From a virus, in the IMG/VR virus record IMGVR_UViG_3300045988_171585, positions 1-57,195 of that record: a stretch of DNA of 57,195 nucleotides; one strand, given 5' to 3'. The position numbers were made by a program, and so were the translations under genes. A model generated the notes under the pieces. The model searched no databases and was not told the origin of the DNA. It was given only the letters and a program-made list of their open reading frames with translations. Below, one piece after another: positions 32,116 to 55,194 of this stretch; position 1 is the stretch's first letter, and the number at the start of each line of letters is the position of its first letter.

Positions 32116-32290
32116 TATTATTTCCTCCTTCTTTTTTAACAGATTGGGCTCCTAGAAAGAACCCTATTACAGTTACTACCACTGATTGTAATTCTTGTGG
32201 CACTGACGATTTAACCACAATACAATAAGCAAACAATAGCATAGTAATAACTGTTATGAACGATTTAATATCATCCCAACATTTCTTCAT
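32096..32290 (-). CDS. Holin
   Basis: 64 aa, two TM helices, charged C-terminus, overlaps the endolysin start. Confidence 0.65.
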   Translation of the reverse strand: MKKCWDDIKSFITVITMLLFAYCIVVKSSVPQELQSVVVTVIGFFLGAQSVKKEGGNNNDNGLN

Positions 32291-32347
32291 TTGATATCCT
32301 CCTTTTTATTTCTATCTTACTATATTATATCATATTTAACTTTTTCT

Positions 32348-32376
32348 GTAAAAATAGTTGACTTATATTGTAGAAT
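32348..32376 (+). promoter_or_regulatory. sigmaA promoter TTGACTTATAT-N-TATTAT driving a noncoding region
   Basis: Nearly identical (25 bp) to the minus-strand promoter at 55501-55529. Confidence 0.55.
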
Positions 32377-32399
32377 ATGATATTATTGTTTTGTGAGGA

Positions 32400-32955
32400 G
32401 AAATCTTCGCAAGTTTACCATTACAAATGAAACTAATACTTGCTATCTATTTTATAGGTAGCATAGAGTAGATAATTATCATAACCTGTTCTATGAGGTT
32501 GACTATATAAATCAATAGAACAATGGGAAAATATAGTCCTTATCTATTCTATGGTACTTATGAGAGTAAGTATCGAACTTAAACATATTAATTTCATGAT
32601 AATGCTATCTATTTTATAGGTAGCATAGAGTAAATAATATAACTCAATTGGTAGAGTGTGGAGCGTACGCAATTCTTAAAAACCAGGACACGAGAGTTAC
32701 AGGTTCAAATCCTGTTGTTATTTACTCTATGGTGCTTATAAATACTAGTAGTCTATAAATGTGTTCCATAATGGAGTAAGTCAAGTTCCACTTGATGTAG
32801 AAATCATCTTTATAGACAATAAGCACGGTTAGTAGGTAACGTGTTGGTTATTTACCCAAACGGGAAATAAGTATGAGCTGGTGAGCTAATATTTAAAACT
32901 AGTTGTGATTGGTTCAAATCCAATCCGTATTTGTTTCCCTAAATATTTACATATT
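32400..32955 (+). ncRNA. Candidate large structured ncRNA with two tRNA T-arm-like elements
   Basis: No ORF; promoter upstream; terminator downstream; 33-bp direct repeat at 32444 and 32607; GGTTCAAATCC T-arm motifs at 32699-32715 and 32908-32924 with pairing acceptor-like ends but no canonical anticodon arm. Confidence 0.35.
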
Positions 32956-32957
32956 AA

Positions 32958-32995
32958 AAAATCAGGATTTAATTATCCTGATTTTATTTTATTTC
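32958..32995. terminator. Bidirectional terminator
   Basis: aatcagga tttaatta tcctgatt with A-run 5' and T-run 3'. Confidence 0.65.
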
Positions 32996-33184
32996 TTCTT
33001 CTACATATAGTTCATTTAGTTTGTTATCATCAAAATTATCTGCTAGAAATATTATAGATGTGTAATAAGGTTTATGTTCTTCTTCATTTTCAGAAGCAGG
33101 TATATATAAATCATTTATATCTCTTATTTGTTTATTTTCATCTGCAATTAATATTTTCTTTTCGCCATATTTTCTTATTTCCAT
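32984..33184 (-). CDS. hypothetical protein
   Basis: ORF. Confidence 0.45.
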   Translation of the reverse strand: MEIRKYGEKKILIADENKQIRDINDLYIPASENEEEHKPYYTSIIFLADNFDDNKLNELYVEEEIK

Positions 33185-33194
33185 GATACACCTC

Positions 33195-53039: not shown

Positions 53040-53288
53040 CTACGGTTTATATCGGAAGAGTTCTTTGTATAGTTGTTCGTCCTTTACAACGTGTTCTTCT
53101 TTATCTACAGCATTTAAATATTCCCAAATTACATCACATGTTCGTTCTCTTAGATAGCGTCTAGAATAAATATAATACTTATATATTTGACGTTCATTAG
53201 AAGATGACAAATTAAAAACTTTTTCAATAAGTTCCCGTTTTCTATAAAATTCTCTGTAGCCAAAAAATCTAAGTCTGTCGTCAAACAT
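53040..53288 (-). CDS. hypothetical basic protein (possible small terminase/DNA-binding)
   Basis: Immediately upstream of the terminase large subunit. Confidence 0.35.
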   Translation of the reverse strand: MFDDRLRFFGYREFYRKRELIEKVFNLSSSNERQIYKYYIYSRRYLRERTCDVIWEYLNAVDKEEHVVKDEQLYKELFRYKP

Positions 53289-53328
53289 GCCATCTACCTC
53301 ATATTCTTATCTAAGTACATTTTAGCAT

Positions 53329-53357
53329 ACAAATGTATTATTGTCAATATAAAAAAA
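53329..53357 (-). promoter_or_regulatory. sigmaA promoter TTGACA-N17-TAAAAT (late operon)
   Basis: Reverse complement: ttgacaataatacatttgtatgctaaaat. Confidence 0.5.
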
Positions 53358-53403
53358 AATACCAATATTATGGTATTCATTCAACTCGGAGAGATTTTCT
53401 ACT

Positions 53404-53478
53404 TGGAGGTGGTAGTAGGAATCGAACCTACAATAAAAGTTTTGCAGACTTTCGCCTTAACCCTTTGGCTATACCACC
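53404..53478 (-). tRNA. tRNA-Cys (GCA) with encoded CCA
   Basis: Reverse complement folds as a cloverleaf: acceptor GGTGGTA/TACCACC, anticodon stem AAAGT/ACTTT with loop CTGCAAA, T-arm GTAGG-TTCGATT-CCTAC, 3' TCCA. Confidence 0.8.
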
Positions 53479-53479
53479 A

Positions 53480-54310
53480 TATAGTTTTGGATGAGACTTA
53501 TTAAAAACCCATCCATAATACAAGTATACGTACCTAAAACCTGAAAAAAATAATAAAAGGAATCTTAGGTACATCAAGAAAGGAGCATTACTCGCCATCC
53601 ATGTCGGGGGTGAAATGGCTAATTAGCTATCTGAAATAATTACGTGAGATAGTCCTCCTATTAATTTTTATAAGACAATCGTTGTTCGGTCACTAGGGAG
53701 TATTAACCCAAAAACAAGTTGCGAACTTATTTCCTTAATACCCAGGGTGGTAACCGTCTTATACCTAGACTGGAATCATTACCAGCAATTCTTACACACG
53801 GTTGGGTCATAATTTATTACGTAAAATTATGTAAAAACCTTATTAATCTTTTTCATATTTCATATTTACCAAACATGCGGATTTGTGCAAGAATACCAAG
53901 TTCTAACCTTATAGAATATCACTATTCGTCAACCGCACGATTATCACTTAATTGGTAGTCTCATTTTTCCCTCACCCATACCAATAGGGGTAGTACTAAT
54001 GAGTTTTATAATTGCCCTATACATGAGCACGTTTTATAGTTGTGATCGGTTAGGCTTGTACGATACGACATTCATATAAAAACCACTATTTTCTCATTCC
54101 CTAGTTTCTAGGTCCCAGTATATATTTTACAATACACACCAACTCTATCCTCCATAAGTCTGCACTAATGGATAAAAAGCATTGAGAAAATATCCTTACT
54201 ATATTGTGTTATAGTCTTTCATAAGGTTCTCAAGTAATTATTTCAAATAGCTAATATGCGAGTAATCCTATATTGAGTGTTGTGTAATAGAAATATAATC
54301 CCTATCACAA
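53480..54310 (-). ncRNA. Candidate large noncoding RNA upstream of tRNA-Cys
   Basis: About 830 nt without ORFs on the transcribed strand; promoter at 54315-54343; locally GC-richer block 53560-53830. Confidence 0.3.
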
Positions 54311-54314
54311 TTCA

Positions 54315-54343
54315 ATAATAACATATAATACATAAAAAGTCAA
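54315..54343 (-). promoter_or_regulatory. sigmaA promoter TTGACTTTTTAT-N-TATTAT (minus)
   Basis: Reverse complement: ttgactttttatgtattatatgttattat. Confidence 0.5.
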
Positions 54344-54345
54344 TA

Positions 54346-55194
54346 TTATTTTTGCACTCTATTACCATTATCATCAACATACATCCAGTGATAACCACCA
54401 CAAGTTAAATCTTCAGGGCGATTGACAGCTTCATAGAAATATTTTAGTGTTCCACCCACTGTTTTTTCAAGCCATGCTTTAGCGGCGACAGCATTTTCAA
54501 ATATCATATTATTTTCTATACATTTTACTTTTAATCTTTCATCTTTTATCATTTTAGACACATTATAATTCTCGTCATTGTATAGTCTAAATGTATATCC
54601 ATGTGTTGAGAATCTTCCAGCATCCCCAGCCAAATAATGATTTACAATCTGAGGAGATAATCCAACATCTTTGGCACATTCCATTATGCTCCCATATAAC
54701 TTCCCTGTTTCGCAGCAAACAACTTTAATAGCACAATCCTTACCTTTATCAAGTTCTCCTTGTACTTTCTTAACTGTTTCTGCTTGTCTTTCGGCTTGTT
54801 TTTTAATAAGTTTATCTCTTTCTCTAACCCTACCTCTAGTTGGTTGTTGAACACCCTGAAGTATTTTTACAAATTTTATATCAAATTGAATTGTATCGGA
54901 TAGATAAGTAACAGTTAGCATATATTGTCTATTTCTACGAAGAGTAACTTGTATTTCTTGTGACGCACCTTCTTCAACATTATGCATAAGTTTTGTAGTC
55001 TCCGTACCAGCGTAAAATTCATCTAATATTGATCCGATTTCTAAAAACGTTAAATCTGCCGAGTTTGAGATATAGAATTTGTGATAGTTTTTTAATTTTT
55101 CAGCCTGCTGTTTGCCAAATATCTCAAGAGCCTCTTCATGTATTCTTTGTCTTTTACGTTCTCTTTTTTTAATTTCTGCTTTCGTTAAACCCAT
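54346..55194 (-). CDS. Homing-endonuclease-like DNA-binding protein (two NUMOD/IENR-type repeats, no recognisable nuclease core)
   Basis: Repeats VVCCETGKLYGSIMECAKDVGLSPQIVNHYLAG...GYTFRLY and VKCIENNMIFENAVAAKAWL...GGYHWMYVDD; start refined to the ATG at 55194 after tggagg. Confidence 0.5.
   Translation of the reverse strand: MGLTKAEIKKRERKRQRIHEEALEIFGKQQAEKLKNYHKFYISNSADLTFLEIGSILDEFYAGTETTKLMHNVEEGASQEIQVTLRRNRQYMLTVTYLSDTIQFDIKFVKILQGVQQPTRGRVRERDKLIKKQAERQAETVKKVQGELDKGKDCAIKVVCCETGKLYGSIMECAKDVGLSPQIVNHYLAGDAGRFSTHGYTFRLYNDENYNVSKMIKDERLKVKCIENNMIFENAVAAKAWLEKTVGGTLKYFYEAVNRPEDLTCGGYHWMYVDDNGNRVQK

Follow-up and report, generated by a model that had tools for sequence, protein, structure and literature searches.

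The locus

Just ahead of the packaging genes in a 57,195-nt stretch of viral DNA (the window; positions 1-57,195 of the IMG/VR record IMGVR_UViG_3300045988_171585, from which all coordinates are counted) is a gap of 1,057 nt that very probably holds a functional gene for the ROOL RNA (Rfam RF03087) of a tailed phage infecting gut bacteria of low GC content. Every gene from about 30.9 kb up to the window's end is on the minus strand, and the features in transcriptional order are an open reading frame (ORF) of 314 aa, the gap, an ORF of 82 aa, the large terminase gene and an SPP1-type portal gene. The gap itself is filled by a compact unit that runs from a predicted promoter with an extended -10 element through the ROOL sequence, a spacer and tRNA-Cys(GCA) with its CCA encoded to a hairpin followed by a U-run, beyond which lies the next predicted promoter and the 82-aa ORF. 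A first-pass annotation, made from the letters of the DNA, had proposed for this place an RNA of about 900 nt resembling the large structured RNAs GOLLD and ROOL that lie beside tRNA genes, had offered a group I intron or another ribozyme as the alternative, and had named an Rfam scan and an analysis of covariation in homologous phages as the ways to decide.

ROOL was described by Weinberg et al. in 2017, including its phage and tRNA context (PMC5737381). Structures obtained by electron cryomicroscopy (cryo-EM) for the env-120, Enterococcus faecalis and Ligilactobacillus salivarius ROOLs are cages (PMC12286853, PMC12990946), and the literature treats ROOL as a cage-forming RNA whose function is unassigned (PMC12286853, PMC12990946). 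The window ROOL is a further member of this known family in its typical setting, in a phage and beside a tRNA.

A full-length ROOL match

When 53200-54500 is scanned with cmscan at laxer filters, RF03087 matches 53630-54250 on the minus strand with a score of 150.1 bits (gathering threshold 99.1, E = 4e-33). The match is 51 bits over the family threshold and spans model positions 1-574 of 574, so that it is not truncated. The same RNA is missed at default filters: a whole-window Rfam scan at gathering settings reported tRNAs only and lost ROOL at the hidden Markov model filters, and a default-filter scan of 66 kb from seven loci also missed the three closest relatives (L001, L002 and L004, of the seven related phage contigs L001-L007), whose ROOLs were recovered by blastn and nhmmer. 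Since the default Rfam filters miss AT-rich ROOLs, such RNAs are probably under-annotated in phage genomes.

No other large-RNA family, GOLLD, introns, RNase P and tmRNA included, gave a match on either strand of 53200-54500 with E up to 10, and ARAGORN found no tmRNA; these candidates are therefore out. The proposal of a GOLLD- or ROOL-type RNA beside a tRNA is supported by the full-length ROOL match, and the suggested group I intron or other ribozyme found no Rfam counterpart up to the same E value. The length also has to be revised. Because the closing helix runs past the RF03087 model, the RNA is placed at 53622-54255, about 634 nt with the full closing helix as compared with 621 nt in the model match and a family length near 580 nt; the remainder of the supposed 900 nt is leader, 143-nt spacer, tRNA and terminator.

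Secondary structure and covariation

The structure was taken from the cmscan alignment and its register then corrected from covariation. Three helices had been aligned one position out of register, and the correction reduced 17 apparent non-canonical pairs to 8, leaving 157 of the 165 nested pairs of the window ROOL canonical. Its minimum free energy (MFE) is -173.3 kcal/mol (z = -5.24). Contacts beyond the nested structure were detected by mutual information with average product correction (MI/APC). With residue r of the RNA standing at window position 54251 - r, the parts considered here are:

53622-54255, minus strand: ROOL RNA gene, the RF03087 match at 53630-54250 with an extension of the closing helix at each end
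54229-54255, minus strand: 5' strand of the closing helix P1, from an inverted repeat, the MFE fold and covariation
53622-53648, minus strand: 3' strand of P1, from the same three sources
54206-54207 (residues 44-45), minus strand: AC of loop L2, pairing with residues 452-453
53979-53985 (residues 266-272), minus strand: loop L8, AUUGGUA, forming 7 bp with residues 294-300
53951-53957 (residues 294-300), minus strand: junction J8/6, UACCAAU, the partner of L8
53933-53938 (residues 313-318), minus strand: pseudoknot 5' strand, GUGCGG, from MI/APC and covariation
53875-53880 (residues 371-376), minus strand: pseudoknot 3' strand, CCGCAU, at the 5' edge of the variable linker
53800-53874 (residues 377-451), minus strand: variable AU-rich internal linker with a GC content of 0.22 and a weak fold
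53798-53799 (residues 452-453), minus strand: GU, the partner of L2, at the 3' flank of the linker

The covariation set brings together 55 distinct ROOLs, taken from contigs of related phages and from metagenome-assembled genomes (MAGs) of the gut, in sequence-based alignments made with MAFFT. With the corrected structure 81.7% of cells are paired, as compared with 39.5-46.1% in controls with slid partners; changes on both sides are found in 142 of 175 pairs, and the covariation score of 0.460 (at most 0.128 in the controls) was reached in none of 500 shuffles. The Rfam structure projected onto 23 sequences gives much the same picture, with 77.0% of cells paired against 40-46% for slid partners and a score of 0.451 against at most 0.146. 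The structure is thus supported by the covariation analysis among homologous phages that had been suggested for it, and the helices, one pseudoknot and three loop contacts are maintained by compensatory changes across the 55 ROOLs.

P1 has 27 bp with one mismatch (54255-54229 with 53648-53622) and was seen independently as a 28-nt inverted repeat in blastn and within the MFE fold. Among the 23 sequences 14 of its 16 model pairs covary, and pairs outside the model covary as well. The internal linker, about 74 nt, is unalignable among relatives. At close range, the window ROOL and that of L001 differ by 7 substitutions, of which 4 are at paired sites and all 4 keep the pair; in comparison with L002, 61 substitutions at paired sites are pair-keeping and 17 pair-breaking.

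Pseudoknot and loop contacts

The pseudoknot between residues 313-318 and 371-376 is paired in 97.6% of cells of the 55-sequence set, and 5 of its 6 pairs change on both sides; of the published ROOL pseudoknots, the check covers this linker-flanking one. Complementarity between L8 and J8/6 is present in nearly every one of the 55 ROOLs in lineage-specific sequences (UGGU/ACCA, UAGU/ACUA, UGGC/GCCA, UUCGCA/UGCGAA and UUGACA/UGUCAA are among the variants), and none of 5000 permutations reaches what is observed. The 7 bp of the window are among the longest in the set, and the sole difference from L001 in J8/6 turns an A-U pair into G-U. The two pairs of the L2 contact are canonical in 55/55 and 53/55 ROOLs, 98.2% paired, with the first pair being GC in 23, AU in 21 and GU in 11. 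A further contact, of loop L3a residues 90-91 with J6/7 residues 212-213, is 86% paired.

In the octameric cage solved by Kretsch et al., L8-J6/8 is the intermolecular bridge B4, a kissing loop, B1, sits beside the linker, and the internal linker is disordered inside the cage (PMC12286853). For the structures from E. faecalis and L. salivarius, a 2026 review gives these two contacts as J11/9-L11' and L2-L13' (PMC12990946). The L8-J8/6 pairing of the window corresponds to bridge B4 of the env-120 ROOL cage (PMC12286853), and the contact of L2 with the linker flank is probably, by position only, the published intermolecular contact B1 (or L2-L13'). The window ROOL thus retains the sites that hold ROOL cages together.

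Predicted transcription unit

The further parts of the unit, in the order of transcription, are:

54315-54343, minus strand: sigma-70-type promoter with extended -10, predicted by consensus scan
54256-54308, minus strand: leader of about 50 nt, from the predicted start to the ROOL closing helix
53479-53621, minus strand: ROOL-tRNA spacer of 143 nt, unconserved
53404-53478, minus strand: tRNA-Cys (GCA), found by ARAGORN and as an Rfam tRNA match of 68.6 bits against a threshold of 29
53351-53378, minus strand: intrinsic-terminator-like hairpin of 8 bp with a 6-nt loop, its 3' arm running into nine U
53319-53347, minus strand: second predicted promoter, TTGACA, 17 nt with TG, TAAAAT, 11 of 12 consensus positions, extended -10

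The promoter ahead of ROOL had already been noticed as consensus-like and pointing into the gap, and it bears scrutiny: TTGACT (54343-54338) and TATTAT (54320-54315), separated by a 17-nt spacer with TG, have 10 of 12 consensus matches, and both hexamers, the TG and the AATTGTG that follows are conserved in the four related contigs L001-L004, its function being a prediction. Transcription is predicted to start near 54308. The leader, in which no Rfam match was found (54256-54308), varies from about 40 to about 130 nt among relatives, and the spacer on the other side of ROOL ranges from 24 to 165 nt and is a gap in the blastn comparison with L002 and L004. The tRNA-Cys likewise follows ROOL in L001-L004 and L006; that a clean tRNA-Cys(GCA) with an encoded CCA ends the region was correctly called from the start, and its CCA can be read directly at 53406-53404. 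The terminator-like hairpin folds with -10.1 kcal/mol (z = -3.35), and L002 has a hairpin of differing sequence with a U-run at the matching place. The second promoter stands directly after this hairpin, is conserved in L001, L002 and L004, and is predicted to drive the 82-aa ORF and the large terminase and portal genes.

Flanking genes and coding potential

The window ROOL, with its own predicted promoter and terminator, is immediately 5' of the terminase genes. Its neighbors are:

55290-54346, minus strand: 314-aa ORF; its weak DNA-binding match, of NUMOD type, stays under the Pfam cut-off
53288-53040, minus strand: 82-aa ORF, no family match, with a ribosome-binding site ahead
53031-51280, minus strand: large terminase
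51069-49558, minus strand: SPP1-type portal

No recognizable small terminase was found near the 82-aa ORF and the large terminase. The minus strand has no ORF of at least 60 aa from the 314-aa ORF's stop (54346) to where the 82-aa ORF starts (53288), as the first-pass annotation had said, the longest being one of 56 aa (53428-53598) that overlaps the tRNA. A plus-strand ORF of 79 aa at 53719-53958 is not conserved in relatives. Across the 55 homologous regions ORFs are unconserved, their positions and frames varying between close relatives, and 12 of the regions are without any ORF of at least 40 aa. The block at 53560-53830 is indeed GC-richer than its surroundings, with 0.376 as compared with 0.302 for the window, which places it at the 97.6th percentile of equal-sized windows.

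Relatives and probable hosts

A search with the terminase yielded the seven related IMG/VR phage contigs (17.6-62 kb), and all seven have a ROOL 5' of the terminase gene. Identity to the window ROOL region by blastn is 98.7% for L001 and 75% for each of L002 and L004; in L003, L005, L006 and L007 Rfam finds ROOL at the corresponding genomic place, with 156-196 bits. A motif scan of viral contigs, whose first pattern gave 120 loci that were mostly chance matches and were filtered with nhmmer, added 15 further ROOLs, and a tighter motif scan of GTDB genomes gave 36 more loci, almost all of them full-length ROOLs.

Cultured relatives are another matter. The region matched none of 50,697 deposited phage genomes by blastn except at its tRNA-Cys, megablast with 12 kb hit only Streptococcus thermophilus phages, over 111 nt of a capsid gene, and gave no cultured relative, and 185,579 GTDB genomes contained no relative of the large terminase. 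The MAGs with ROOLs of this subclade (L128-L163, GTDB), from rabbit, mouse, chicken, yak and human gut, are mostly labeled as uncultured Bacilli, Tenericutes and Acholeplasmataceae, with Candidatus Ventrenecus too, a taxonomy that suits the 30% GC of the window. A few bins are labeled Clostridia, Flavobacteriales or Muribaculaceae, and this group may be one of binning errors or phage contigs. Loosely judged from the ROOL-bearing MAGs, the host is probably an uncultured gut lineage of Bacilli or one resembling Mollicutes.

tRNAs beside ROOLs and in their linkers

Distances of tRNAs were computed relative to P1. A same-strand tRNA lies within 1 kb of it in 28 of the 55 ROOLs and in 27 there is none, while a tRNA on the opposite strand was met within that distance of one ROOL only. 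The linked tRNAs are varied (Cys, Met, Gln, His, Glu, Ile, Lys, Leu and Pro) and occur on either side. In 12 of the 55 (L163, L139, L151, L072, L128, L110, L135, L136, L005, L133, L159 and L148) only 2-4 nt lie between the end of a same-strand tRNA (Met, Gln, His or Glu) and the closing helix with its 5' strand, and in two others (L153 and L155) tRNA-Gln starts 2-4 nt past the 3' strand of the helix. With tRNAs this close to the closing helix, the machinery that processes tRNAs may define the ends of ROOL, and the arrangement suggests that these are often set by tRNA-processing nucleases. The more distant relative L005 has eight tRNAs (Trp, Leu, Ile, Thr, Pro, Gln, Cys and His; 1576-2766) immediately 5' of its ROOL, tRNA-His ending 2 nt ahead of the closing helix; the clade to which the window belongs keeps tRNA-Cys alone, downstream of ROOL.

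The linkers of nine of the 55 ROOLs (L089, L152, L162, L157, L129, L158, L149, L142 and L161), that of the window not being one of them, contain a hairpin resembling the T arm of tRNA, with a 5-bp stem and a UUCRANN loop, for example AAGGG-UUCGAAU-CCCUU. The shuffled mean is 0.54, and none of 2000 shuffles reaches the nine observed; kinship among the nine reduces them to about six independent occurrences.

There is also a tRNA-like element elsewhere in the window, at 32615-32741 on the plus strand, with a core at 32633-32723 that scores 43.4 bits with the Rfam tRNA model and is not called by ARAGORN. It has good acceptor, D and T arms, 33 nt replacing 15 model positions of the anticodon arm that are elided in the alignment, and its acceptor stem is prolonged into about 24 bp of helix (MFE -43.9 kcal/mol, z = -6.1). 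The element is on the opposite strand to its neighbors, genes for an endolysin and a BspA-like repeat protein, in a gap of about 1.08 kb free of long ORFs (32116-33194). A bacterial Y RNA was considered for it and rejected, there being no TROVE/Ro gene nearby and no YrlA match.

Alternative explanations

That the sequence is a decaying, non-functional relic, no longer under structural selection in this phage, might be thought from its score, lower than those of its relatives (150 against 156-196 bits), from its high compositional bias and from its escape from the default Rfam filters. What one would not expect of a relic is that 157 of 165 pairs are canonical, that both pseudoknot strands and the kissing partners are intact, with 7 bp between L8 and J8/6, that the promoter is conserved, or that substitutions respect pairing as they do, all those at paired sites keeping the pair in L001 and 61 keeping it against 17 breaking it in L002. 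Decay is accordingly held to be very unlikely, and equally little weight is given to the proposal that the RNA is a cis-acting structured leader or processing scaffold solely for the production or regulation of tRNA-Cys. The latter draws on the tRNA-Cys that follows ROOL in the window, L001-L004 and L006 and on the 12 relatives with a tRNA 2-4 nt from the closing helix, but 27 of the 55 ROOLs lack a same-strand tRNA in the 1 kb around P1, the linked tRNAs differ in identity and stand on either side, neither the sequence nor the length of the ROOL-tRNA spacer is conserved, and purified ROOL RNAs form ordered cages alone (PMC12286853, PMC12990946).

A protein-coding or DNA-level element is less probable again. 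The 79-aa plus-strand ORF, together with the small minus-strand ORFs, could be set forth for the former, and for a pac or cos site the position just upstream of the packaging genes; yet the ORFs are unconserved, 12 of the 55 regions having none of at least 40 aa, and the substitutions track RNA pairing and not codons. A pac or cos site is conceivable in the flanks, but it would leave the compensatory changes of over 140 pairs unaccounted for. The faintest chance of all goes to a self-splicing intron, another ribozyme or another known large RNA (GOLLD, group I or II introns, RNase P, tmRNA), for which the large size, the high degree of predicted structure and the neighboring tRNA gene might speak: ROOL is the sole large-RNA match in 53200-54500 even with permissive filters and E up to 10, ARAGORN found no tmRNA, and no gene is interrupted, the flanking ORFs ending and starting cleanly.

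Several points count against a functional, cage-forming ROOL and have to be set beside the evidence for it. The window ROOL scores 150 bits, with a compositional bias of 37.6 bits, which is below the approximately 190 bits of more distant relatives. Helices P6-P8 and the inner 3' hairpin are only 36-70% paired on the MAFFT alignments of the 55 ROOLs, which is attributed to misalignment, and alifold returned nothing on P6-P8. The terminator hairpin is weak, with 2 G-C pairs, and falls below the GC rule of the consensus scan; the promoter, the terminator and the processing steps are all predictions. Oligomerization of the window ROOL is inferred from features of its sequence alone, covariation cannot separate a contact within a molecule from one between molecules, and a stoichiometry of 6 or 8 chains is not readable from sequence. 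The suggested role in translation or tRNA economy discussed below is a guess drawn from gene linkage alone.

Comparison with other RNAs

With the ROOL family the window RNA shares its size of about 600 nt, the long closing helix, multiple junctions, a pseudoknot at the edge of the linker, the L8-J8/6 and L2-linker-flank contacts, an AU-rich unconserved linker, location in a phage and a same-strand tRNA alongside. It differs from the characterized ROOLs in being distant in sequence and in having, at 27 bp, a closing helix longer than that of the Rfam model, and unlike the ROOLs solved by cryo-EM it is known from sequence only. GOLLD resembles ROOL as a large ornate RNA that is found in phages and prophages close to tRNA genes and builds RNA-only cages in which the internal linker is disordered; in contrast to the window ROOL it is larger (more than 800 nt), of unrelated sequence and fold, and its linkers sometimes contain whole tRNAs, of which the linker of the window ROOL has none.

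The pRNA of phage phi29, about 170 nt, is a phage RNA that assembles into a homo-oligomeric ring through intermolecular pairing of loops. Its gene lies near packaging functions, and the RNA itself belongs to the packaging motor, where it binds the portal/connector. The window ROOL showed no relation to it in sequence or structure, and the link of ROOL to packaging is one of gene position, in this phage lineage only. There is also a likeness to the tRNA-linked precursors processed by RNase P and RNase Z, given the same-strand tRNA that is adjacent here and 2-4 nt away in 12 of the 55 relatives. Unlike in such precursors, 143 nt separate ROOL from the tRNA downstream of it in the window, ROOL has a predicted promoter of its own, and RNase P cleavage could bear on the 3' side of the window ROOL only.

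Proposed function and significance

Transcription from the promoter would stop at the terminator and yield a precursor of ROOL, spacer and tRNA-Cys. The tRNA would be freed by RNase P and by processing of its 3' end, which could also help to trim ROOL, both ends of which the 27-bp closing helix would protect. The RNA of about 634 nt would then fold into the flat multi-junction ROOL architecture, and by analogy with the three ROOLs known from cryo-EM, six or eight copies of it may come together as a hollow cage. The contacts between them would be the 7-bp kissing of L8 with J8/6, the contact of L2 with the linker flank and further bridges, and the AU-rich linker would point inward.

Since tight same-strand linkage to tRNAs recurs in the family, the working guess is that the cage has a role in translation or the tRNA economy of the infected cell, by storage, sequestration or as a decoy; a role in DNA packaging is considered less likely. 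A more specific idea is that the ROOL cage of these gut phages is tied mechanistically to tRNA biology and presents or hides tRNA-like modules. It comes from the tRNAs abutting at 2-4 nt, the tRNA-Cys in one apparent unit with ROOL and the linkers that mimic a T arm, and it is doubtful, the odds being well against it. If it were true, the cage could capture a host factor that binds T arms, such as a tRNA-processing or tRNA-modification enzyme or a tRNA-targeting defense nuclease, and ROOL would serve as a decoy compartment of RNA, produced ahead of virion assembly and while it proceeds.

ROOL is among the few natural RNAs known to form a closed cage without protein. The window does not add a new kind of element, and this copy alone leaves the question of what ROOL does no more tractable; it is a clean and compact example, with one promoter, one ROOL, one tRNA and one terminator as far as these can be predicted, and in a family of phages of 53-62 kb the unit keeps its place directly 5' of the packaging genes. 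The set of 55 sequences shows selection, in an uncultured gut lineage, on the contacts that hold the cage together, and in the tRNAs that abut the closing helix and the T-arm-like hairpins of a linker expected to face inward, it provides leads on the biogenesis and the function of ROOL.

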